A stretch of DNA of 64,000 nucleotides from Chloroflexota bacterium (lineage in GTDB: Bacteria; Chloroflexota; Limnocylindria; Limnocylindrales; CSP1-4). Where the stretch lies: contig PMYK01000054.1 of NCBI GenBank assembly GCA_003171255.1, positions 121,229 through 185,228 on the forward strand, read 5' to 3'. Positions 1-50,987 of this stretch are shown here, piece by piece. Each line of letters begins with the position of its first letter. Position 1 is the stretch's first letter. The position numbers were made by a program, and so were the translations under genes. Under the pieces are notes generated by a model, which was not told where the DNA came from, ran no database searches, and saw only the letters and a program-made list of their open reading frames with translations.

Positions 1-719
1 TCGAAGAGATCCTCTATCCGGCGATGGAGGACTACGCCCTGGACGTCATGATCGGCAAGGGGCCATCGGCGCGAAGCCTTCGCCTGAGCCTCAAGCCGTT
101 CACCATCGTCGGCGCCACGACTCGAGCGGGCCGCATCTCCAGCCCGTTGCGCGACCGCTTCGGCGCCACGTACCGGCTCGACTTCTACGACGTGGCGGAC
201 CTGACCGCGATCGTTGTGCGCTCCGCCCGTCTGCTCGGCGTGGAGCTGAGCTCGGATGGCGCCACCGCCATCGCCCAGCGGGGCCGCGGAACGCCGCGCG
301 TCGTGAACCGGCTGCTGCGCCGCGTCCGCGACTACGCCCAGATCAACGGCGACGGCCACGTGGATGCCGCCGTTGCCGCCAGGGCCTTGGCAGCGCTCGA
401 GATCGACGACGAGGGCCTCGACGGGACGGACCGCAAGCTGCTTGCCGCGATCGTCCAGAAGTTCGGCAGCGGACCGGTCGGCGTCCAGGCACTCGCCGCC
501 GTCCTCGCGGAGGAACCCGAAACCGTGGAGGACGTCTACGAGCCGTTCCTGCTGCGGCTCGGCTTCCTGGACCGCACGCCCCAGGGCCGAATTGCCACGG
601 ACCGCGCCCGAGCCCACCTCGCGCGCCTCGGCTTCGAGGTTCCTCCGGCACGCCGGGGCGACACGGACCAGGCGGCTTTGTGGAATGACTCGCCCGACAC
701 GGATCAACCGGTCCGGTGA
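1..719 (+). CDS. ruvB: Holliday junction helicase RuvB, C-terminal part (5' end lies outside the window)
   Basis: Translation has '[22 protein letters not shown]', '[17 protein letters not shown]' and '[17 protein letters not shown]', which match the RuvB AAA+ lid and winged-helix regions. The frame is open to position 1. Confidence 0.9.
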
Positions 720-4116: not shown

Positions 4117-5646
4117 ATGGATACCGCCATTGTGGTGGCTGCCGCCGTTGTGGCCGCCTTCGCGGGTCTCTGTATCGGCTTCCTTGGCCGCGGCTGGGTT
4201 GCCAATCAGGCGCTTCAGAGCGCGCAGGACAAGGCCGCTCGGATCGTGGCCGAGGCACGGACTCAGCAGAAAGAGCTGATCCTCACCGCCAAGGACGAGA
4301 AGCTGAAGCTCCAGCGCGAGGCCGAAGATGAGGCCCGCGCCAAACGCGCAGAGTTGTCGACCCTCGAGAGCCGGCTGTTGTCCCGTGACGAGCAACTCGA
4401 CATGCGCGCCGACATGCTCGAGCAGCGCGACCGCAAGTTGCTCGATCGCGAGCGCGAGTTCGAGCAGAGTCGGCAGGAATTGGCCCAAGCCCAGCAGGAG
4501 CATGTGGACGCCCTCGAGCGGGTCAGCGGCATGTCGGCCGCGGAAGCCAAGGCGCAGCTGCTCGAGGCCGTCCGAGAAGAGGCCGAGCGCGACGCCGTCA
4601 AACTTACGAAGTCGATCGAGCGCGAGGCGCGCGAGGAGGCCGACGAGCGGGCCCGCGAGATCATCATCACTACCATGCAGCGGATCGCCGCCGATCACAC
4701 CGCCGAGCACACGGTCTCCACCGTGCACCTGCCCAACGATGAGATGAAGGGCCGCATCATCGGCCGCGAGGGTCGCAACATCCGGGCCCTCGAACAGGCC
4801 ACGGGCGTGGACCTGATCATCGACGACACCCCCGAAACGGTCGTGATCAGCGCCTTCGACCCGGTCCGCCGCGAGATCGCCCGCGTGGCCCTGACCAAGT
4901 TGATGGCCGATGGCCGGATCCATCCGGGCCGCATCGAAGAAGTGGTAGCGAAGGCCCGCGCCGAACTCGATCTGGTCATGCGACAGGCCGGCGAGCAGGC
5001 TGTCTACGACGCGGGCGTTCCCGCCCTGCCGACGGAGATCGTCAAGCTGCTCGGCCGGCTCAAGTTCCGGACCAGCTACGGCCAGAACGTCCTGGTCCAC
5101 TCCGTCGAGACGAGCCGGCTGGCGGCGATCATCGCGTCCGAGCTCGGCGCCGACGTCCAGGCGGCGAAAGTTGGCGGCCTATTGCACGACCTCGGCAAGG
5201 CGGTCGACCACGAGGTTGAGGGCCCGCACGCCCAGATCGGCGCTCAGATCGCGCAGCGCCACAACCTCTCGCCGAAGGTGGTGAACGCGATCGCCGCCCA
5301 CCACCAGGAAGTCGACTTCGCCTCGCAGGAGGCCCCGATCGTCCAGGTCGCGGACGCCATCAGCGCGTCGCGACCCGGAGCGCGCGGCGAATCGATGGAG
5401 ACATACGTCCGCAGGCTCGAGGATCTCCAGGCCATCGCCGAAAGCTTCGATGGCGTCGAGCGAAGCTTCGCCGTCCAGGCCGGCCGAGAGGTTCGAGTTC
5501 TGGTCAAGCCGGAGCAGATCGACGACGTGAGCGCAACCCGGCTGGCTCGCGACGTCGTCAAGAAGATCGAGGCCAGTCTTACCTACCCGGGCCAGATCAA
5601 GGTGACGGTCATCCGCGAGACGCGAGCCGTCGAATACGCCAAGTAG
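4117..5646 (+). CDS. rny: ribonuclease Y
   Basis: It has an N-terminal TM segment, a coiled-coil, a KH domain ('GRIIGREGRNIRALE') and an HD domain ('HSVETS...LLHDLGKA'). GGGAGG lies upstream of the ATG. Confidence 0.9.
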   Translation: MDTAIVVAAAVVAAFAGLCIGFLGRGWVANQALQSAQDKAARIVAEARTQQKELILTAKDEKLKLQREAEDEARAKRAELSTLESRLLSRDEQLDMRADMLEQRDRKLLDREREFEQSRQELAQAQQEHVDALERVSGMSAAEAKAQLLEAVREEAERDAVKLTKSIEREAREEADERAREIIITTMQRIAADHTAEHTVSTVHLPNDEMKGRIIGREGRNIRALEQATGVDLIIDDTPETVVISAFDPVRREIARVALTKLMADGRIHPGRIEEVVAKARAELDLVMRQAGEQAVYDAGVPALPTEIVKLLGRLKFRTSYGQNVLVHSVETSRLAAIIASELGADVQAAKVGGLLHDLGKAVDHEVEGPHAQIGAQIAQRHNLSPKVVNAIAAHHQEVDFASQEAPIVQVADAISASRPGARGESMETYVRRLEDLQAIAESFDGVERSFAVQAGREVRVLVKPEQIDDVSATRLARDVVKKIEASLTYPGQIKVTVIRETRAVEYAK

Positions 5647-6506: not shown

Positions 6507-7478
6507 ATGGCGGAGGATCCGAGCGGCGGCCCGGTCCGTTTCCAGAACCGTGGCAGTCGGCCGATGAGCGGGCCGCCGGTCGTCCCAAGATACCCCTCGC
6601 GCGTAGATCTCCACACCCACAGCCGGCGCTCCGATGGCGTCCTCGAGCCCCAGGCTCTGGTCGACGCCGCCGCGGCCGTCGGAGTCCGGGTTCTGGCCCT
6701 GGCCGACCACGACACCCTGGCGGGCGTTCGAGAGCTTCGGGCTCCGGGACAGGCCGAGTTGCTCCTGGAGCTCGTGGCTGGCGTGGAGATCAACAGCGTC
6801 GCATCGGGCATCGATCGACTCTGGGAGGGCGAGTTGCACATCCTCGGCCTCGGCGTCGATCTGGATGACGAGGCCTTCGAGGCTGCCCTGGACCGCCAGC
6901 GCGAGTCGCGCTCGATCCGGTTCGGGATGATCGTGGCGCGTCTGCGCGAGCTCGGCCTTCCCGTTGACGAGGGCGCCGCCGTCATGCGCAACTCGCCGGG
7001 CTCCTCGCTCGGCCGCCCTCAGATTGCCCGCCTCCTCGTTGCCGCCGGTCACGCGTCATCCGTCGACGCCGCGATGCAGACGTTGCTCGCCCGGGGCAAG
7101 CCCGCCTACGTCCCGCGATACGGCCTCGGACCGCGGGAAGCGATCGACGCCATTCGCGCCGCGGGTGGGTTGCCGGTCCTGGCCCATTTCGCCGACGGAC
7201 CGTCGCGGCGGGCACTGGTGGCCGAGCTTGCGTCGCAGGGACTACGCGGCCTGGAAGTCCACTACCGTCACTTCGATGCGCAGACCGTGGCCGACATGGC
7301 CGCCCTGGCAACGGACCTGCGCCTCGTGCCGACCGGCGGGAGCGACTACCACGGCGACGTCGAAACCTACGCGGAGGCCCACGCCTCATTGTTCGTGCCG
7401 GACGAGGATGCCGAGGCCATGTACGCCGCGCTCGGCCGCCAGCCGGTCGAGCCCGCGGTTGGCGGCGCGAGCAGCTGA
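6507..7478 (+). CDS. PHP-domain phosphoesterase (TrpH/YciV-like)
   Basis: 'VDLHTHSRRSDG', 'LALADHDT', 'GVEIN', 'LAHF' and 'GGSDYHG' form the PHP metal-binding motif series. Confidence 0.75.
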   Translation: MAEDPSGGPVRFQNRGSRPMSGPPVVPRYPSRVDLHTHSRRSDGVLEPQALVDAAAAVGVRVLALADHDTLAGVRELRAPGQAELLLELVAGVEINSVASGIDRLWEGELHILGLGVDLDDEAFEAALDRQRESRSIRFGMIVARLRELGLPVDEGAAVMRNSPGSSLGRPQIARLLVAAGHASSVDAAMQTLLARGKPAYVPRYGLGPREAIDAIRAAGGLPVLAHFADGPSRRALVAELASQGLRGLEVHYRHFDAQTVADMAALATDLRLVPTGGSDYHGDVETYAEAHASLFVPDEDAEAMYAALGRQPVEPAVGGASS

Positions 7479-9175
7479 TGAGCGGCCGAACGGTGACGGA
7501 GCTAGCCGCCTCGCTCACGGCCCTGCCGCGTGCCGGCAACGTGGCCGCCGCGCCCGCCGTCGAAGCCGGTCTGATCGAGTTCCGACCGGAGACGAACAGC
7601 CTGCCGAGCTTCTTCATGTGGACCCTCGGCTGCCAGATGAACCTGAGCGACTCCGAGGAGATGGCCGGCCAGCTGCTCGCCGCAGGCTGCCGGCGTGCCC
7701 CGTCCATGGAAGACGCCGACCTCGTCGTCATCAATACCTGCGCGGTCCGCGAGCATGCCGAGGCAAAGGTCATCGGCCGCCAGGGGCTGCTCGGCCAACT
7801 CAAACGAGCCCGGCCCGGAATGCGCGTCGTCCTGACCGGCTGCGGCGTCCGCGAAGCCGAGCGGGCCGGCCTGGCACGCCGGTTCCGAGCGGTCGACATG
7901 TTCCTCCGTCCCGACGAGGAGCCCGAGCTCGCGCTTCGGCTTGGCCTCGTGTCCGCCCAGGCGCCGATCGGACTGCGGACCGTCTCCACGGCTGCCACTA
8001 CCGTGCTGAGCGGCCGGCCGGTCAGCGCAGCCGACCGACTGGCCGCCTCGCGCGCCAGCGCCCTGGCCGAGCACCGCGTCGCCCGGTCGTCGAGGATCTC
8101 CGCCTGGCTGCCCATCGTCTATGGCTGCGACAAGACCTGCACCTACTGCATCGTTCCTTTCAGCCGCGGCCCGGAGCGGAGCCGGCCCTTCGACGACATC
8201 CTGGCCGAGGCCCGAGAGATCGCCGCGGCCGGATACCAGGAATTGACGCTTCTCGGCCAGAACGTCAACAGCTACGGCCACGACCTACCGGCGGAGGAGC
8301 GCTTTGGCCACATCGACACCGAACGCTCGGCCGGACGACAGCTCGACCTGCGTTCGCGTCCCGACCTGGCGGAGCTGCTGTGCGCCATCGACAGCATTCG
8401 CGACGCCGACGGGGCGCCCGCCATTCCGCGCCTGCGCTTCATAACCTCGCATCCATGGGACCTGTCGGACCGGCTGATCGATGCCATGGCGACATGTGAG
8501 TCGGTGGCCGAGCATCTCCACCTGCCGATCCAATCGGGCGACGACGCGATGCTCCAGCGCATGGGGCGCCAGTACACGGTGGGTCACTACAAGGAGCGCC
8601 TGGCCCGCATTCGAGATGCCGTGCCGGGCATCGCCGTTTCGACGGACGTCATCGTCGGCTTCTGCGGCGAGACCGACGAGCAGTTCGGCGCCACCCTCGC
8701 GGCCCTCGACGAGATCCGGTTCGACACCGTGTTCGCGGCCGCCTACTCGCCGCGCCCGGGAACGCCGGCCCTGCACATGGCCGACGACGTTCCCGCCGAG
8801 GAGAAGCGCCGCCGGCTCAACGAGCTACTCCGGCGTCAGGAGGTCATCGGCGCGGAGCGCAACCGCGAGTGGCTCGGCCGCGATGTCGAGGTCCTGGTCG
8901 AGCAGGTCACCCCGCCCCGCCGGCGCCTGCAGCCAAACGACGCGGACGCCGACGACACGGACGAACCGGTCTCGGCCGTTCCGCCGCTGGCCGGCACGGC
9001 GGGGGAGGGGAGCGTTGCCCTGGCCGGCCGGACGCGCCACAACAAGCTCGTCCATCTGGCCGGCGACCCTGCGCTGGTCGGTCACAGGGTCAGGGTTCAC
9101 CTCGAATACGCCGGTCCGTTCGCTCTCCGCGGCCGACTGGTGGAGGCGCCCGATGAGCCCGATGTCCTCGCCTGA
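7478..9175 (+). CDS. miaB: tRNA-i6A37 methylthiotransferase MiaB
   Basis: It has the UPF0004 N-domain 'FFMWTLGCQMNLSDSE', the radical-SAM motif 'YGCDKTCTYCIVP' and a C-terminal TRAM region. The start overlaps the upstream stop (ATGA). Confidence 0.9.
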   Translation: MSGRTVTELAASLTALPRAGNVAAAPAVEAGLIEFRPETNSLPSFFMWTLGCQMNLSDSEEMAGQLLAAGCRRAPSMEDADLVVINTCAVREHAEAKVIGRQGLLGQLKRARPGMRVVLTGCGVREAERAGLARRFRAVDMFLRPDEEPELALRLGLVSAQAPIGLRTVSTAATTVLSGRPVSAADRLAASRASALAEHRVARSSRISAWLPIVYGCDKTCTYCIVPFSRGPERSRPFDDILAEAREIAAAGYQELTLLGQNVNSYGHDLPAEERFGHIDTERSAGRQLDLRSRPDLAELLCAIDSIRDADGAPAIPRLRFITSHPWDLSDRLIDAMATCESVAEHLHLPIQSGDDAMLQRMGRQYTVGHYKERLARIRDAVPGIAVSTDVIVGFCGETDEQFGATLAALDEIRFDTVFAAAYSPRPGTPALHMADDVPAEEKRRRLNELLRRQEVIGAERNREWLGRDVEVLVEQVTPPRRRLQPNDADADDTDEPVSAVPPLAGTAGEGSVALAGRTRHNKLVHLAGDPALVGHRVRVHLEYAGPFALRGRLVEAPDEPDVLA

Positions 9176-41045: not shown

Positions 41046-42713
41046 CTACACCTCCACCACAACCGGGAACACGAGCGGCCGACGACGCGTCTGCTCGTAC
41101 AGGTAGCGCGAGACCACATCCTTGATCTTCGTCTTCACCAGCCCGACCTCGCTGGTCCGATCGCCGGGGCTCTCGATGGCGGCCAAGATGTGCTCGACGG
41201 CACCGAGCATCAGCGGGTCGGACTCGTTGCCGTGCACGAAGCCGCGAGTCACGATCTCCGGCCGGGCAACGACCCTGCCGGTCTGCTTGTCGACGGTCAC
41301 GACCACGATGAACATGCCGTCGCTGGCGAGGGCGCGGCGGTCGCGCAGCACAACCTCGCCGACATCCCCAACCGACAGGCCGTCGACGAGAACGTAGCCC
41401 GCCGTCACCGGAGCCGCCCGTCGGGCGCTGCCGTCGGCGAAGAACTCGATCGCCTGGCCGTTCTCGATGATAAAGACGTTCTCGGGGGCCACACCGGTCT
41501 CGACGGCCAGGCGGCCATGCTGCACCAGCATCCTGAACTCGCCGTGAATCGGGATGAAGTACTTGGGCCGCGTCAGGCCCAGCATGAGCTTCAGCTCTTC
41601 CTGACTGGCGTGACCCGAGACGTGGGCGTGTTTGACGGTGTGGTAGTAGACGTTGGCACCGGCCTTGAAGAGGTTGTCTATCGTGCGTGCCACGTACTCC
41701 TCGTTGCCGGGGATCGGGCTGGCGCTGACGATGACGGTATCGCCGGGCTGGATCTCGACGAATCGATGGTCGTGGTTGGCCATGCGGGCCAGGCCGGCCA
41801 TCGGCTCGCCCTGGGCGCCGGTCGTGGCGATGACGATCTTGGCCGCGGCCATCGACCCGATCTGGTCCTTGGGCACCACCTGGCCCGGGGCGTGGGTCAG
41901 GTAGCCAAGGTCCGTGGCGATGCGGAAGTTCTGCTCCATCGACCTGCCCACGACCGCCACCTTGCGCTCGAACGTCGCTGCGGCATCGATGACCTGCTGG
42001 ATGCGCGCGATGTTGCTGGCGAACGTGGCCACGATGACCCGGCCATCGAGCGGCTCCATGATCTCGCGGAAAGTCTCACCCACGGTCCGCTCGGAAAGCG
42101 TGTAGCCGGGGCTCTCGGCCCGTGTTGAGTCGGACAGCAGGCAGACGACCCCGTCCTCGCCCAGCCGGGACAGGACGGCGAAATCGGAGCGGCGACCGTC
42201 CACGGGCGTGTGGTCGAACTTGAAGTCGCCCGTCGTTACAACCGTCCCAACCGGCGTGTGAAGGGCCAGGCCCATCGCATCCGGGATCGAGTGGCTGATC
42301 CGGAACGGCTCGACGCGGAACGGCCCGATCTGCAGCATGTCCCCGGGGTCGAGCGGCAGCAGCGGGTTCGAGTGGAGCTTGTGTTCCTTGATCTTGATGC
42401 CCAGCAGGCCGCGGGCCAGGACCGACGCATAGACGGGAACGCCGGGCAGCTGAGGCAGCACGTACGGCAGCGCCCCCACGTGATCTTCGTGGGCGTGGGT
42501 AATCAGGAACGCACGAACCTTGTCGCGGTTCTCTTTGAGGTAGGTGACGTCCGGAATGACGAGGTCGATTCCGAACATCTCCGCGTCGGGGAACATGAGC
42601 CCACAGTCGACGACGACGATGTCGTCGCCGTACTCGAAGACGTACATGTTCTTGCCGATCTCCCCCACGCCTCCGAGGGGGATGATCCGGAGCGGGGTTT
42701 CGCTATCTGGCAT
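41046..42713 (-). CDS. rnj: ribonuclease J
   Basis: It has the metallo-beta-lactamase motif 'ITHAHEDHVGALPY', a beta-CASP region and 'HVSGHASQEEL'. Confidence 0.9.
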   Translation of the reverse strand: MPDSETPLRIIPLGGVGEIGKNMYVFEYGDDIVVVDCGLMFPDAEMFGIDLVIPDVTYLKENRDKVRAFLITHAHEDHVGALPYVLPQLPGVPVYASVLARGLLGIKIKEHKLHSNPLLPLDPGDMLQIGPFRVEPFRISHSIPDAMGLALHTPVGTVVTTGDFKFDHTPVDGRRSDFAVLSRLGEDGVVCLLSDSTRAESPGYTLSERTVGETFREIMEPLDGRVIVATFASNIARIQQVIDAAATFERKVAVVGRSMEQNFRIATDLGYLTHAPGQVVPKDQIGSMAAAKIVIATTGAQGEPMAGLARMANHDHRFVEIQPGDTVIVSASPIPGNEEYVARTIDNLFKAGANVYYHTVKHAHVSGHASQEELKLMLGLTRPKYFIPIHGEFRMLVQHGRLAVETGVAPENVFIIENGQAIEFFADGSARRAAPVTAGYVLVDGLSVGDVGEVVLRDRRALASDGMFIVVVTVDKQTGRVVARPEIVTRGFVHGNESDPLMLGAVEHILAAIESPGDRTSEVGLVKTKIKDVVSRYLYEQTRRRPLVFPVVVEV

Positions 42714-44887: not shown

Positions 44888-47476
44888 CTACGCCTCCGTG
44901 CGAGCCAGATGACGCTGCATGGCCGCCTTGCGCGAGAGGTTGATACGACCCTGGCGATCGATCTCGATCACCACGACCATGACCTCGTCGCCCACCGAGA
45001 CCACGTCCTCGACAGTCGGGACGTGATAGTCGGCCAGCTCGCCGATGCGGATCAGGCCTTCCTTGCCGGGGAGGATCTCGACGAAGCAGCCGAAACCCAT
45101 GATCCGGGTGACCTTGCCGAGATAGAGCCCGCCGACCTCGACCTCGCGAGTGAGCGACTCGATCCACTGGACGGCCTTGCGCGAGTTTTCGCCCGACACG
45201 GCCGCGATCTGGACGGTGCCGTCGTCCTCGACGTTGATCTCGGTGCCGGTCTCCTCCTGGATCTTGCGGATCACGGAGCCGCCCTTGCCGATGATGTCGC
45301 GGATCTTCTCCGGGTTGATCTTGATGGTGATAATGCGCGGCGCGAAGTTGCTCATCTCCGTGCGGCTCGTCGCGATGACCGCATCCATCTTGTCGAGGAT
45401 CGCCATCCGCGCCTCGTGGGCCTTCTGAAGGCCCTGGCGGATGATCGCCTCGCTGATGCCCTTGACCTTGATGTCCATCTGCAGCGCCGTGACGCCCTCT
45501 CGGGTGCCGGTCACCTTGAAGTCCATGTCGCCGAAGGCGTCTTCCTTGCCCAGGATGTCGGTCAGAACCACGAAACGGCCATCCGGCTCGGTGATGAGGC
45601 CCATCGCGGCGCCGCCGACGGCGGCCTTGATCGGCACGCCGGCGTCCATGAGGGCCAGGCTCGAGCCGCAGGTCGAAGCCATCGAGGTTGAGCCGTTGGA
45701 CGTGACGCACTCGGACACGAGGCGGATCACGTACGGGAACTCCTCCTCCGACGGCAGGACCGGCAGAAGAGCACGCTCCGCGAGGTGGCCGTGGCCGATC
45801 TCGCGGCGACCGGGGCCGCGCATCGGCTTGTTCTCGCCGGTGCTGTAGGGCGGCATGTTGTAGTGGTGGAGGTACCGCTTCTCGGTCTGTGGGCTGATCG
45901 TGTCGATCCGCTGGACGTCCGAGGAGGGGCCAAGAGTGGCGACTGTCAGAGCCTGAGTCTGGCCGCGGGTGAACAGGCCGGAGCCGTGGGCGCGCGGCAG
46001 AACGCCGACCTCGACGGAGATCTGGCGAAGCTCGTCGACGGCACGGCCGTCCATCCGGATGCCCTCGTCGAGGATGACCTTCCGGACGGTCTTCTTCTGA
46101 ACGAACTGGAAGAGGCTCTTGCTGACCCGGCCCTGGCGGCGGGCCGCCTCGAGCAGACCGGCCGGATCCTCGCCGTCCTTGCGGTTGGCGCGGATCGAGA
46201 TGGCAATCGCGTCCTGCAGGTTCTCGATGCGGTTCGGGAGGTCGCTCGCGAACTGGGCAACGATGCCGGCGGTGGTCTCGGCGTCGGCGAGGCCGCGGTG
46301 AACGGTCTCGACGGTGATGCCGAAGAAGCGGGCGACGTCGCCGAGCTTGTACGACTCGAGGTCCGGGTAGGCCTCGCGAGCGATCGCGAGAGTGTCGTAG
46401 TAGCCGCCTACGATGAACTTCCCGGTCTCGCCCAGGGCCTGGTCGAGGAAGCCGAGATCGAAGCCGATGTTGTGGCCAACGACAGGCGCTCCGCCGACGA
46501 AGGCGAGCAGCTTCTCGGCCGCTTCCTTCGCGATCGGGGCGCCGGCAACGTCGGCGTTGGTGATGCCGTGCATCTGGGCGCCGAAGATGTCGCGGCCCGG
46601 GCTGACGAAGGTGGAGAAGCGATCGACGACCTGGCCGTCGCGGATGCGGACGGCGCCGATCTCGATCAAGTCGGCGACCTTGGGGTCGCGGCCTGTCGTC
46701 TCGGTGTCGACGACGACGAGCTCGTAGCCGGGCTGGCTGACCTTCTTCACGAACTCCAGAACGGAGCCGATGCCGGGCTCGAGATACCCAACGGACTTGG
46801 GCTTGCCGGCGGCGGCGCGCATCTCATCCTGGATGTCGATGAGAGGCTGAAGGGCACGATGGCCGAACAGGATGGCGTCGGCCATGACGTCTTCGGGCAC
46901 GATCGAGGCGCCTGCCTCGACCATCATGATCGCGTCGCGCGTGCCGGAGACGATCAGGTCGATGTCCGAGCGCTCGAGGTCGCTGATCGTGGGATTGACC
47001 ACGAACTCGCCGTCGATGCGGCCGATGCGCACGGCGCCGATGGGGCCGAGGAACGGGATCGGGCTGATCGTCAGGGCGCACGAGGCGGCAAAAGTGCCGA
47101 GGACGTCAGTCTGGTTCTCCTGGTCCGTGGACAGGACCGTGATCACGATCTGGATGTCGTCCTTGTAGCCCTCAGGGAAGAGCGGCCGGATGGGTCGGTC
47201 GGTCAGCCGGCAGGCCAGGATGGCCTGCTCCGACGGGCGCGACTCGCGCTTGATGAAACCGCCCGGGATCTTCCCCGCGGCGTACATGCGCTCTTCGAAC
47301 TCGACCGTGAGCGGGAAGAAGTCAAGGCCGGGTCGGGGATCCGATCGGTTGGCTGTCCCGAGAACCATGGTGTCGCCGAAGCGAACTGTGACCGCGCCGC
47401 CCGCGAGCAGCGCCATCTTGCCGGTCTCGATGGTTAGAGTGCGGCCGGCGAATTGCGTCTCGAATGTCTGAGACAC
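44888..47476 (-). CDS. pnp: polynucleotide phosphorylase with inserted DEDDh 3'-5' exonuclease domain (862 aa)
   Basis: PH1 ('FFPLTVEFEERMYAAGKIPGGF'), PH2 ('RREIGHGHLAERAL', 'SNGSTSMASTCG'), KH ('IGKGGSVIRKI') and S1 ('GKVTRIMGFGCFVEI') are all present. Residues ~250-410 carry 'VVVDTETTG', 'GHNIGFDLGFL' and 'HRGLADAETT'. Confidence 0.9.
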   Translation of the reverse strand: MSQTFETQFAGRTLTIETGKMALLAGGAVTVRFGDTMVLGTANRSDPRPGLDFFPLTVEFEERMYAAGKIPGGFIKRESRPSEQAILACRLTDRPIRPLFPEGYKDDIQIVITVLSTDQENQTDVLGTFAASCALTISPIPFLGPIGAVRIGRIDGEFVVNPTISDLERSDIDLIVSGTRDAIMMVEAGASIVPEDVMADAILFGHRALQPLIDIQDEMRAAAGKPKSVGYLEPGIGSVLEFVKKVSQPGYELVVVDTETTGRDPKVADLIEIGAVRIRDGQVVDRFSTFVSPGRDIFGAQMHGITNADVAGAPIAKEAAEKLLAFVGGAPVVGHNIGFDLGFLDQALGETGKFIVGGYYDTLAIAREAYPDLESYKLGDVARFFGITVETVHRGLADAETTAGIVAQFASDLPNRIENLQDAIAISIRANRKDGEDPAGLLEAARRQGRVSKSLFQFVQKKTVRKVILDEGIRMDGRAVDELRQISVEVGVLPRAHGSGLFTRGQTQALTVATLGPSSDVQRIDTISPQTEKRYLHHYNMPPYSTGENKPMRGPGRREIGHGHLAERALLPVLPSEEEFPYVIRLVSECVTSNGSTSMASTCGSSLALMDAGVPIKAAVGGAAMGLITEPDGRFVVLTDILGKEDAFGDMDFKVTGTREGVTALQMDIKVKGISEAIIRQGLQKAHEARMAILDKMDAVIATSRTEMSNFAPRIITIKINPEKIRDIIGKGGSVIRKIQEETGTEINVEDDGTVQIAAVSGENSRKAVQWIESLTREVEVGGLYLGKVTRIMGFGCFVEILPGKEGLIRIGELADYHVPTVEDVVSVGDEVMVVVIEIDRQGRINLSRKAAMQRHLARTEA

Positions 47477-47590: not shown

Positions 47591-47860
47591 CTAGCGACGC
47601 AGTCCGAGCCGTGCGATGACGGCGCGATAGCGAGCGTTGTCCTTCTTGATCAGGTACTTAAGAAGGCGGCGTCGCTCTCCGACGAGCTTGAGGAGGCCGC
47701 GGCGGGACTGATTATCCTTCGGGAAGCTACGGAGATGCTCCGTGAGCTCCTTGATCCTCTCGGTCAGGAGCGCAATCTGCACTTCCGCTGAGCCCGTGTC
47801 GCCATCCTTGACGGCGTACTCCGAGATCACCTGTTCCTTCGTCTCCCGCGCCAGCGGCAC
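47591..47860 (-). CDS. rpsO: 30S ribosomal protein S15
   Basis: '[24 protein letters not shown]....[23 protein letters not shown]' matches S15, and the 89-aa length is typical. Confidence 0.95.
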
Positions 47861-49946: not shown

Positions 49947-50987
49947 CTAGCGCTGGACCGCGGCCACGAGCGTGCCCGCCCGAGCCAGGACTACCTTGAG
50001 GGCCTCGGTCAGCGGCAGGGCCAGAGTGGCGCCGGCAGCGCGGGCATGTCCACCACCGCCAAACGTACCCGTCAGGACGGTCGCGTCCACTCCCCCATCG
50101 CGAGTCCGAACGCTGATTCGCGTAGTCCCGTCACCCTCGACTTGCTTGAACAGGATCGAAGCCTCGGACGTCTCCGACTGGGCCAGCATGTCCACGAGGC
50201 CCTCGGCCTCCGCGGCCCCGGCGCCACTCGCCGCCAGGTCGGCCAGCTCGAGAGTCGACCAGACCAGCCGGCCGTCGAGGTCGGATTCGAGCCGCGCCAG
50301 GACGCGCCCAAACAGCAACAGCTGTGTGTTCGGCTTTGATCGGTACAGCCGCCGCGAGATCTCGCTGAACGGCGCCCCGGCCTCCCTCAGCGCGGCCGCC
50401 ACGAGCAGCGTCCGCGGCGTCACGTTGGGGTGCTGGAAGTTGCCGGTATCCATCACGACGCCGCCGGCCAGGGCCGATGCGAGCATGCCCTCGAAAGCGG
50501 TAAGCGGAACGCCGAGACGCCAGGCTAGCAGCGTCACCATCTCGCAGGTGGCCGAACTGCGCGCGTCGATCCAATCCACCGACCCAAACCGCGGGTTCGA
50601 CAGGTGGTGGTCGATGTCGATTATCGGCACGCGCCGGAACAGGTCGCGGTGCGACTCCAGCACGGGTCCGATCCGTTCCAGTTCACCGCAGTCCACGACG
50701 ACGAGCAGGTCGTAGTCGATCGACGGGTCGGGTTCGCGACGGAAGCGGTCCATGCCCGGGAGGAACTCGTACATCGCCGGCATCGGGTCCGCGCAGACGG
50801 GCGTGGCCACTCCCCCACCCGCCTCGACGAGCAGGCTCACCGCCAGCGCCGATCCGAGCGCATCCGCCTCCGGGTTCTCGTGGCAGATCGTCAGGACCCG
50901 TTGGGCCGCTCGCAGCCGCTCGATCACCTCGGCGGGCACTGCGCTGGCGTATTCGGACAGGTCGACCCGCGGTCCGGAGTCGATCAC
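49947..50987 (-). CDS. nrnA: DHH/DHHA1 phosphoesterase (NrnA-like oligoribonuclease/pAp phosphatase)
   Basis: 'TICHENPEADALGS', 'VVDCG', 'IDIDHH' and 'GGGHARAAG' are present. Confidence 0.8.
   Translation of the reverse strand: MIDSGPRVDLSEYASAVPAEVIERLRAAQRVLTICHENPEADALGSALAVSLLVEAGGGVATPVCADPMPAMYEFLPGMDRFRREPDPSIDYDLLVVVDCGELERIGPVLESHRDLFRRVPIIDIDHHLSNPRFGSVDWIDARSSATCEMVTLLAWRLGVPLTAFEGMLASALAGGVVMDTGNFQHPNVTPRTLLVAAALREAGAPFSEISRRLYRSKPNTQLLLFGRVLARLESDLDGRLVWSTLELADLAASGAGAAEAEGLVDMLAQSETSEASILFKQVEGDGTTRISVRTRDGGVDATVLTGTFGGGGHARAAGATLALPLTEALKVVLARAGTLVAAVQR

Follow-up and report, generated by a model that had tools for sequence, protein, structure and literature searches.

Polynucleotide phosphorylase (PNPase) is among the most conserved and best-studied enzymes of RNA decay. 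A review describes a five-module layout as common to the PNPases of all organisms (PMC8836086), and a further study reports that a short oligonucleotide remains as a product of the enzyme (PMC11572968). The helical domain of E. coli PNPase is situated across from the S1/KH face and contributes to a pore that constitutes a second route to the active site; the domain influences activity, and the pore has been proposed to control access of NDP and Pi (PMC2723993). Other 3´-5´ exonucleases act alongside PNPase or resemble the domain described here. REXO2 functions downstream of mitochondrial PNPase-SUV3 (PMC7261184), and DEDD domains of the DinG type can degrade both ssDNA and RNA (PMC12774634, PMC12525004).

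Here we describe a pnp gene from a 64,000-nucleotide stretch of a Chloroflexota genome (the window), in which a DEDDh exonuclease domain is inserted into PNPase itself. Our literature search found no paper describing such an insertion, in agreement with an initial sequence-only reading, which knew of no characterised example of the architecture, and none of the solved PNPase structures has the insert. The insertion is real, and it represents a conserved architecture previously undescribed in the literature that we found, for which we suggest a function below.

Results

A PNPase divided by a DEDDh domain

The sequence-only reading proposed that the 862-aa product of pnp (Table 1) retains legible PH1, PH2, KH and S1 modules, and the ORF list, Pfam and the PNPase equivalog TIGR03591 all agree. 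The protein scores 940.9 bits against TIGR03591 (cut-off 525), in two matched stretches split by the insert, and 939 against NF008805 (cut-off 471). Two RNase_PH, two RNase_PH_C, one KH_1 and one S1 domain flank the insert. RNase_PH, KH, S1 and RNase_T were thus matched as the reading expected, while the helical-domain profile PF03726 stayed below its cut-off (22.3 vs 24.6 bits) and covered residues 453-478 only (profile positions 55-80). Alignment with S. epidermidis PNPase (5yjj) pairs query residues 3-219 with reference residues 18-234 and 413-853 with 276-709, leaving a net insertion of about 150 aa. In the window protein, the PNPase is intact and its alpha-helical linker hosts a complete, in-frame DEDDh domain.

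Table 1. Features of the pnp locus, in positions of the window; residues are those of the PNPase.
Feature	Positions	Strand	Basis
rpsO (ribosomal protein S15), directly upstream of pnp	47591..47860	(-)	89-aa ORF
pnp, PNPase with inserted DEDDh domain	44888..47476	(-)	862 codons + stop; ORF list, TIGR03591, Pfam
First RNase PH-like core (PH1), residues 1-219	46820..47476	(-)	Pfam RNase_PH + RNase_PH_C; 5yjj 18-234; dN/dS 0.038
Helical domain, N-terminal piece (upstream junction), residues 220-253	46718..46819	(-)	AF2 secondary structure, family alignment
Inserted DEDDh (DnaQ/epsilon-like) 3´-5´ exonuclease domain, residues 254-405	46262..46717	(-)	PF00929; PDB matches; Foldseek; dN/dS 0.124
ExoI (DTETTG): D257 46706-46708, E259 46700-46702	46700..46708	(-)	Codons checked
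ExoII (GHNIGFD): D340	46457..46459	(-)	Codon checked
ExoIII (HRGLAD), H-x4-D: H393 46298-46300, D398 46283-46285	46283..46300	(-)	Codons checked
Helical domain, retained C-terminal part, residues 406-478	46043..46261	(-)	AF2; Pfam PF03726; invariant columns
Second RNase PH-like core (PH2), phosphorolytic site, residues 479-700	45377..46042	(-)	Pfam; dN/dS 0.044
KH domain, residues 716-773	45158..45331	(-)	Pfam KH_1, E=3e-12
S1 domain, residues 779-850	44927..45142	(-)	Pfam S1, E=2e-16

The phosphorolytic site of PH2 was defined by an RNA/phosphate site (RRE.GHG), a phosphate loop (NGS[ST]SMA) and a metal site (D..GDMDFK). All three are present, as RREIGHG at residue 557, NGSTSMAS at 594 and EDAFGDMDFK at 645-654, and RREIGHG, NGSTSMAS and GDMDFK are invariant in an alignment of 66 family members. 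We take the EDAFGDMDFK site to be the equivalent of E. coli D486/D492/K494. The insert-bearing enzyme presumably forms a homotrimeric ring and degrades RNA 3´-5´ in a Pi-dependent manner.

The insertion point lies between helices one and two of the all-alpha-helical domain, such that the PH1-PH2 linker is no longer uninterrupted; its helices are kept but divided by the 152-aa domain. In the AlphaFold2 model, the N-terminal piece, which bears a GKPK motif, contains a helix at residues 237-246, and the ExoIII helix continues into the helical bundle as a single helix (395-432), followed by helices at 438-449 and 453-471. The retained C-terminal part is rich in conserved Arg and Lys (R416, R447, R450, K453, K461 and R465 are invariant) and has a net charge of +4. 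The insert is confidently modeled by AlphaFold (pLDDT 89.7 and pTM 0.87 for the domain), and is predicted to form a rigid unit with the helical bundle.

The exonuclease block had been read at positions 46247-46729, equivalent to residues 250-410, and a complete domain is found there: Pfam RNase_T (PF00929) matches residues 254-405 with E=6.4e-28 and 98.8 bits (cut-off 24), spanning profile positions 1-163 of 164. The three Exo motifs quoted in that reading are all present, and both the codons and the alignments place the D-E-D-D-H residues within them. The H-x4-D spacing of ExoIII is the hallmark of the DEDDh subclass. All five residues (D257, E259, D340, H393 and D398) align with the catalytic residues of the PolC exonuclease 2p1j and are conserved across the family. 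D257 and E259 are invariant in 127 of 127 and 66 of 66 family sequences, and D340 in all 131 sequences compared and in the 66-sequence alignment. H393 and D398, also invariant in the 66-sequence alignment, are kept in 130 of 131 sequences; the lone exception, with R at both positions, is probably a frameshifted gene call. Adjacent motif residues T260, T261, G262, F339, D361, T362, R394 and A399 are invariant as well, and H335 is nearly so.

The closest PDB sequence matches to the insert are the PolC exonuclease (2p1j, E=8e-23), DinG, DnaQ and epsilon, and the nearest structures by Foldseek are the S. aureus DinG exonuclease, the PolC exonuclease, DnaQ and E. coli epsilon. Superposition on E. 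coli epsilon (2gui, 2ido and 1j53) gave TMt values of 0.79-0.81 and rmsd values of 2.1-2.5 Å, indicating an RNase H-like alpha/beta fold. Orn, REXO2 and RNase T were absent among the top 25 NCBIfam matches and the PDB sequence matches. By fold they rank below DinG, PolC, DnaQ, epsilon and ExoX, with REXO2 and Orn at ranks 14-33. The insert does not reach the dnaQ equivalogs (TIGR01406, 84.8 bits vs 222.7; NF004316, 71.5 vs 196) and barely passes the domain-level TIGR00573 (73.7 vs 71.5). We predict that the insert has metal-dependent hydrolytic 3´-5´ exonuclease activity. Most of the JGI copies are named "DNA polymerase III epsilon subunit family exonuclease"; since the protein is a PNPase, this name is misleading.

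Distribution, conservation and origin of the insert

All 120 best matches to the window protein (at least 90% identity) contain PF00929 within a PNPase, as do all 120 best matches to the "Ca. Limnocylindrus" protein P0123 (at least 70% identity), which is itself 68% identical to the window protein. Counting the best 120 per query, the PNPase-DEDDh architecture is present in at least 240 protein clusters, which come from independent assemblies (ENA, JGI, NCBI and Logan). A contig scan with subclade-specific peptides found insert-bearing pnp in 14 species-representative MAGs. Among the carriers are "Ca. Limnocylindrales" of peat and soil at one end and "Ca. Limnocylindrus" of fresh water at the other, and the window gene is the single-copy-locus housekeeping pnp of Limnocylindria. 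Searching with a profile of the insert and the helical module, with candidates selected by words, returned 47 fragments, all pieces of PNPases; this does not give a family count. Outside the family, no independent PNPase-DEDDh fusion was present among the best 150 matches (at least 106 bits) from an exhaustive search of 1.84 billion representatives, although a very divergent fusion could lie beyond these 150.

Several candidates for further variation were rejected. Distant multi-stretch matches (among them P0141, P0153, P0156, P0161, P0166 and P0170) are not PNPases but tandem-DEDDh proteins with BRCT, GIY-YIG, PolC or DinG architectures. Half-length RNase_T matches in some 50%-cluster representatives do not mean that divergent members have decayed or incomplete Exo domains; they are frameshifted calls, with Arg/Pro/Ala-rich out-of-frame stretches visible in the alignment, and intact divergent members retain every motif. 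A shorter match (L012) is not a deletion variant but comes from an N-masked assembly with runs of X.

Segment lengths in 66 sequences fall between 242 and 247 aa. In 12 orthologues the insert has no indels or stops (dN/dS in Table 1). Its rate of evolution exceeds that of the cores about 2.4-3 times. Family members are 67-94% identical overall, and the insert domain differs by up to 52%. Invariance of the catalytic pentad in an otherwise divergent domain resembles the pattern of a working active site. Judged from sequence, purifying selection acts on both the PH2 phosphorolytic site and the DEDDh site, and each is intact.

Distances in the core and in the insert are correlated (Mantel r=0.82; none of 999 permutations was as high). 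GC and GC3 of the insert equal those of the flanks and codon usage matches, in line with the in-frame insert and shared codon style noted in the sequence-only reading, and we found no flanking repeats at the insert. Given this co-divergence, the equal GC3 and the absence of flanking repeats, the DEDDh domain was acquired once and long ago, in an ancestor, from a monomeric exonuclease of the epsilon/PolC/DinG type.

Gene neighborhood

The locus has the canonical rpsO-pnp arrangement, and the rpsO orthologue in L016 matches PF00312 (Ribosomal_S15). The order nusA-infB-rbfA-DHH-truB-ribF-rpsO-pnp-asd-UDG-rnj is conserved, and is identical in the distant clade that is 68% identical. An NrnA-like DHH/DHHA1 gene belongs to the same operon cluster as pnp, and rny lies about 40 kb from pnp. 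The presence of nrnA, rnj and rny in the window had been pointed out as an RNA-decay-rich neighborhood; the three genes are indeed there, but the setting is ordinary, conserved housekeeping synteny. For this reason, and with rny about 40 kb away, the neighborhood says nothing about function and lends it no support.

Discussion

A proposed bifunctional exonuclease and its alternatives

We favor, by a modest margin over even chances, a bifunctional 3´-5´ exonuclease in which the DEDDh domain hydrolyzes ssRNA 3´ ends beside the phosphorolytic PH2 core. RNA would enter via the S1/KH face and be degraded to NDPs in PH2 in a phosphate-dependent reaction, as in any PNPase. The DEDDh domain, held rigidly on the helical domain at the trimer face opposite S1/KH and next to the side pore, would act hydrolytically on single-stranded 3´ ends, using Mg2+ but no phosphate. 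Its likeliest substrates would be ends that PH2 cannot finish or is not handling; candidates are the short limit oligonucleotides left by PNPase and 3´ tails present when phosphate is scarce or phosphorolysis stalls. A single trimeric particle would thereby carry out hydrolytic as well as phosphorolytic decay, linking covalently what are otherwise partnerships of separate proteins. Some observations count against this model. Nurmohamed et al. thought it unlikely that RNA passes through the pore (PMC2723993), the nearby NrnA-like gene may already provide a dedicated nanoRNase, and the insert evolves faster than the cores and is neither Orn-like nor RNase T-like. The low likeness to Orn and RNase T weakens the idea that the insert is an Orn, but not the idea that it could degrade short RNAs. 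The roles put forward in the sequence-only reading, namely clearing oligonucleotides, dealing with structured 3´ ends and proofreading tails, are speculative.

The comparative data refute a chimeric assembly, or a mobile element recently inserted on this contig only, as the source of the insert; the probability of this reading is negligible. Nothing was found in support of it. The architecture recurs in the clusters from independent assemblies and, with gapless orthologues, in the 14 species genomes, which also answers the concern of the sequence-only reading about an assembly artefact; the same locus is found in a clade only 68% identical, codon usage matches, flanking repeats are absent, and the insert has co-diverged with the core. 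A structural or regulatory role, in which the catalytic site is irrelevant and the domain serves, for example, as a lid gating the passage of NDP and phosphate at the pore of the helical domain, or offers partner proteins a docking site, would fit the effect of the E. coli helical domain on activity and its lining of the proposed NDP/Pi pore (PMC2723993), as well as the more relaxed evolution of the insert compared with the cores (dN/dS 0.12 vs 0.04). We consider such a role improbable, given that the five metal-binding and general-base residues and the surrounding motif residues are invariant in a domain that otherwise diverges so widely.

A role on DNA is a stronger competitor, albeit still an unlikely one. 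The trimeric PNPase could be a scaffold for a 3´-5´ ssDNA exonuclease that serves repair, recombination or the removal of R-loops; alternatively, the two activities could work jointly on DNA 3´ ends. The closest relatives of the insert in sequence and structure are all domains of DNA enzymes (PolC exonuclease, Pol III epsilon, DinG exonuclease, Cas2-DEDDh and ExoX), and the PNPases of B. subtilis and mycobacteria likewise take ssDNA as a substrate and have a part in repair. For B. subtilis DinG, linear ssDNA is a better substrate than ssRNA, and the enzyme removes R-loops (PMC12525004). The DEDD domain of Listeria DinG, however, is a 3´-5´ exoribonuclease on pre-rRNA in vivo (PMC12774634), and therefore homology does not settle sugar specificity. 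The window protein also lacks a DNA-repair-specific partner domain.

The bifunctional exonuclease could be taken further, in a version that we regard as speculative and less probable than a role on DNA. The trimer might be a self-contained exosome-like machine in which a 3´ end is passed between the two chemistries. The DEDDh domain, rigidly placed at the PH2 side pore and on the face that serves as the docking side for Rrp44 in the eukaryotic exosome, might step in where phosphorolysis stalls or phosphate runs short, or might edit the tails that PNPase itself adds, similar to pol/exo switching in DNA polymerases. Such a machine could be an adaptation to phosphorus-poor peat and oligotrophic lakes, in which Limnocylindria live.

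These findings concern an uncultured class-level lineage abundant in soils, peat and lakes. In every sequence retrieved, its housekeeping PNPase has a further, apparently active nuclease of different chemistry, which is attached to the helical domain and side pore, the part of PNPase that is least understood. Should the DEDDh site act on RNA, phosphorolytic and hydrolytic 3´-5´ decay would for the first time be found in a single polypeptide, and the enzyme would be a bacterial counterpart of exosome-Rrp6 and PNPase-REXO2. It would also offer a natural experiment on the role of the helical-domain pore, and on the balance between Pi-consuming, energy-conserving phosphorolysis and hydrolysis. The JGI naming hides pnp in Limnocylindria genomes and inflates dnaQ counts.

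Comparison with known systems

Canonical PNPases (E. coli 3gcm and 7ogk, S. epidermidis 5yjj, C. crescentus 4am3) share the PH1-helical-PH2-KH-S1 order, the phosphorolytic motifs and the rpsO-pnp synteny with the window protein, which is 36-38% identical to them (Foldseek probability 1.0). All solved PNPases are at most 730 aa long and have a helical domain without an insert, whereas the Limnocylindria enzyme has at this place a 152-aa nuclease that would be a second active site.

PolC, the Gram-positive replicative polymerase, has a DEDDh domain of the same subtype (2p1j, 9qpc), likewise nested in another domain. In the PolC-type protein P0186, RNase_T (438-592) lies within PHP (350-705), showing that the DEDDh fold tolerates grafting into a host domain. 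The host of PolC is a DNA polymerase, where the exonuclease proofreads DNA synthesis, in contrast to PNPase, a template-independent phosphorylase. Firmicutes DinG (S. aureus 8zef, B. subtilis, Listeria) gives the best Foldseek matches, with up to 49% sequence identity (P0169), and its exonuclease has been shown to be a monomeric 3´-5´ enzyme on ssDNA and RNA, including pre-rRNA. There, it is fused N-terminally to an SF2 helicase, a motor, whereas in the Limnocylindria PNPase it is an internal insertion and its partner is a second exonuclease.

A functional parallel is provided by PNPase-SUV3 followed by REXO2, and by bacterial Orn, where a DEDDh enzyme clears short RNAs left by PNPase (PMC7261184). 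REXO2 and Orn differ in being separate, dimeric proteins specialized for very short substrates, and their folds are only distantly related to that of the insert. In the exosome with Rrp6 and the Caulobacter degradosome with RNase D, an S1/KH-capped PH ring is physically combined with a DEDD hydrolytic 3´-5´ exonuclease (PMC4245959). Rrp6 and RNase D are DEDDy enzymes and separate, non-covalently bound polypeptides, whereas the Limnocylindria insert is DEDDh and covalent, with three per predicted trimer; and the eukaryotic PH ring is catalytically inert, whereas the ring of the Limnocylindria PNPase is presumably active.

Results

The sequence-only reading had placed a DEDDh block of ~160 aa within a PNPase whose PH1, PH2, KH and S1 modules were readable, and profile searches bear this out. 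In Pfam, the window PNPase has two RNase_PH and two RNase_PH_C matches followed by KH (716-773) and S1 (779-850), and between the two PH halves lies an RNase_T/DEDDh match at residues 254-405 that spans the full length of the profile (positions 1-163 of 164) and, at 98.8 bits (E=6.4e-28), clears the gathering score of 24. With the PNPase equivalog TIGR03591 (NCBIfam), the protein reaches 941 bits (cut-off 525), in two stretches on either side of the insert. Because only residues 3-219 and 413-853 align to S. epidermidis PNPase (5yjj, 18-234 and 276-709), the window protein carries ~150 extra residues. ExoI, ExoII and ExoIII are all present as had been quoted, with catalytic residues D257 and E259 (DTETTG), D340 (GHNIGFD), and H393 and D398 (HRGLAD), whose codons were checked.

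Features of the pnp gene, its product and its neighbourhood (window positions unless a contig or residues are named)
Feature	Position	Strand	Remark
pnp ORF, 862 codons	44888-47476	-	ORF list
Exo insert	46247-46729		residues 250-410
First helix of helical domain	residues 237-246		model
Start of DEDDh alpha/beta fold, three strands	residues 252-290		model
ExoIII helix with H393 and D398, 38 residues	residues 395-432		model; unbroken into helical domain
Helices leading to PH2	residues 438-449, 453-471		model
rnj	41049-42713		within window
rny	4117-5646		within window
DHH/DHHA1 (NrnA-like) gene	49947-50987	-	pnp operon cluster, between infB/rbfA and truB
DHH/DHHA1 (NrnA-like) gene, L016	2685-3728		same place, infB/rbfA to truB
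truB-ribF ORF, 626 aa	48063-49943	-	fused
truB-ribF ORF, L012, 591 aa	34-1809		fused
truB and ribF, L016, 320 + 295 aa	3732-5581		two adjacent genes
UDG-family ORF, 393 aa	42752-43933	-	beside asd; UDG domain 176-320
miaA (IPPT) ORF, 540 aa	8481-10103	+	domain only at 275-513
miaB-like radical-SAM ORF	7478-9175	+	other frame than miaA

Overall, the full-length AlphaFold model is of mediocre quality (pLDDT 69), with 85-96 at residues 230-480; residues 226-475 modeled alone give pLDDT 89.7 and pTM 0.87, from which nuclease and helical bundle are predicted to form one rigid unit. Since one helix precedes the DEDDh fold and the others remain after it, the model depicts a clean insertion between helical-domain helices 1 and 2, with no replacement. 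The retained C-terminal helical piece has a net charge of +4 and carries invariant R416, R447, R450, K453, K461 and R465. Foldseek with the full model returned only canonical PNPases (<=730 aa), and thus the DEDDh module is absent from every solved PNPase. With the domain model, the best matches were the S. aureus DinG exonuclease (8zef), PolC exonucleases (9qpc, 2p1j), DnaQ (8h18) and E. coli epsilon (TMt ~0.8, rmsd 2.1-2.5 Å), with ExoX, Orn, TREX1 and RNase T ranked below them, and sequence searches agree. Among the matches listed, the closest non-PNPase homologues were DinG-type exonuclease-helicases (<=49% identity), small DnaQ-like proteins and PolC, none of which was singled out as a specific donor.

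All of the 120 best listed database matches to the window protein (>=90% identity) share its Pfam content. Their sources are many independent assemblies (ENA, JGI, NCBI and Logan), and 'Candidatus Limnocylindrales bacterium' is the organism name on copies at NCBI. When the insert and both junctions were searched exhaustively with HMMER against 1.84 billion 50%-identity representatives, the best 150 matches included a second full-length cluster of the same architecture, P0123 from 'Ca. Limnocylindrus' (864 aa, 55% identical over the segment). P0123 as query led to at least another 120 clusters, down to 70% identity and including 'Candidatus Limnocylindrus sp.', with RNase_T inside PNPase in all matches listed. 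The insertion thus extends at least from 'Ca. Limnocylindrales' to 'Ca. Limnocylindrus'. In a scan of species-representative genomes, 14 MAGs of Chloroflexota, sampled from fen, peat, permafrost and Danish soils, carried the insert, and 11 of them gave gapless orthologues of 860-862 codons. The window and a Limnocylindrus-clade contig share the locus nusA-infB-rbfA-DHH/DHHA1-truB-ribF-rpsO-pnp-asd-UDG-rnj-ftsK. An assembly chimera, about which the sequence-only reading had been wary, is excluded by the independent assemblies, the 14 MAGs and this identical locus, and the chance of an artefact is negligible.

Many of the family's 50%-cluster representatives (P0122, P0131, P0137, P0142, P0145, P0147, P0154, P0160 and P0176) result from gene calls that are split or frameshifted; they contain out-of-frame stretches rich in Arg, Pro and Ala, some lie on contigs of >1 Mb, and in profile scans they pass for 'degenerate' exonuclease domains. 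P0390 (435 aa, on a 3-kb JGI contig) shares 57% identity with the insert module and has RNase_PH_C, RNase_T and PF03009, the last a family otherwise unseen in this group; it could represent a rearranged copy, or else a gene call that is chimeric or frameshifted.

Across 127-131 family sequences, the DEDDh pentad is invariant with one exception, in which positions 393 and 398 are both R and which probably belongs to the frameshifted calls. The pentad is likewise invariant in a 66-sequence alignment (67-94% identity), though the whole domain diverges by up to 52%. The PNPase-site motifs RREIGHG, NGSTSMAS and EDAFGDMDFK are invariant too, and thus both active sites, phosphorolytic and DEDDh, look alive. 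By Nei-Gojobori dN/dS (66 pairs of 12 orthologues), the Exo domain (0.124) is constrained, ~3x less than the PH1 (0.038) and PH2 (0.044) cores; values were 0.079 for KH-S1, 0.16 for the left linker and 0.25 for the right. The segment from residue 225 to 470 differs little in length (242-247 aa), insert and core pairwise distances are strongly correlated (Mantel r=0.82, 0/999 permutations), the GC3 of the insert matches its flanks (0.92 vs 0.87-0.91), and no direct repeats were found flanking the insert. Together, these sequence features point to one old acquisition followed by vertical inheritance.

The suggestion of an RNA-decay-rich neighbourhood holds in that rnj, rny and an NrnA-like gene are in the window, but the arrangement is not specific to the insert. 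It is the standard Terrabacteria housekeeping order, conserved in a distant clade, and is thus uninformative on the insert; the DHH/DHHA1 gene lies between infB/rbfA and truB in Actinobacteria too. Nearby, truB and ribF, fused in the window and in the N-masked L012 contig and separate in the Limnocylindrus-clade contig L016, look like a clade-specific fusion of neighbouring genes; the window ORF matches Pfam FAD_syn only, with no flavokinase match at E<=1e-5. The UDG-family ORF has a 229-aa counterpart in L016, and the ~175 aa by which it is extended N-terminally may be genuine, or else an artefact of the ORF start. The N-terminal half of the miaA ORF overlaps the miaB-like ORF, and its start is probably over-extended rather than a real extension.

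Discussion

The PH1-helical-PH2-KH-S1 layout has been described as common to PNPases of all organisms (PMC8836086). As had been supposed, full-text literature searches found no description of a PNPase with a DEDD/DnaQ-type insertion, nor is one mentioned in a 2026 paper on the comparative genomics of 236 Limnocylindria MAGs. Two well-known folds are thus joined in an undescribed, lineage-wide and apparently functional combination. The proteins are already public with automatic annotation: NCBI calls them 'polyribonucleotide nucleotidyltransferase', and JGI/IMG calls most of them (P0008-P0120, P0289-P0389) 'DNA polymerase III epsilon subunit family exonuclease'. The latter name is misleading, as dnaQ equivalog models (NCBIfam) fall far below their cut-offs on the window PNPase; it conceals pnp and would make dnaQ counts for Limnocylindria genomes too high.

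The most economical reading, which we favor by a modest degree, is a bifunctional 3'-5' exonuclease for RNA decay. Canonical Pi-dependent phosphorolysis would proceed through the S1/KH portal and central channel, and the DEDDh site would carry out Mg2+-dependent hydrolysis of single-stranded 3' ends without phosphate. Its likely substrates would be the short oligonucleotide that PNPase leaves (PMC11572968), or 3' tails under Pi limitation or where phosphorolysis has stalled. In E. coli PNPase, the helical domain is situated at the torus face opposite S1/KH, is dynamic and plays a part in activity (Nurmohamed et al. 2009, PMC2723993). Because the domain there helps to form a pore, by which the active site can be reached otherwise than through the central channel, the grafted nuclease would adjoin this pore, at a distance from the RNA entry portal, and each trimer would hold three copies.

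Several points argue against a simpler role as a built-in nanoRNase: the Exo domain is neither Orn-like nor RNase T-like, an NrnA-like DHH/DHHA1 gene lies nearby, which is relevant to whether the organism already owns a nanoRNase, and the pore was proposed to serve NDP and phosphate traffic and judged an improbable RNA conduit (PMC2723993). The substrate class is not readable from homology, since in B. subtilis the DinG-type DEDD domain breaks down ssDNA, as well as the RNA of hybrids (PMC12525004), and in Listeria it degrades pre-rRNA (PMC12774634); we regard a DNA-directed role, which the DinG, PolC and DnaQ relatives might suggest, as unlikely. A non-catalytic role is more doubtful still, given the invariant pentad.

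The bifunctional enzyme would unite activities that are divided elsewhere. RNase D accompanies PNPase in the Caulobacter degradosome and Rrp6 sits on the exosome ring, both comparable partnerships of separate proteins (PMC4245959), and products of mitochondrial PNPase-SUV3 are cleared by a separate protein, REXO2 (PMC7261184). That such an insertion is tolerated is illustrated by PolC (P0186), in which a domain of the DEDDh type sits inside another domain.
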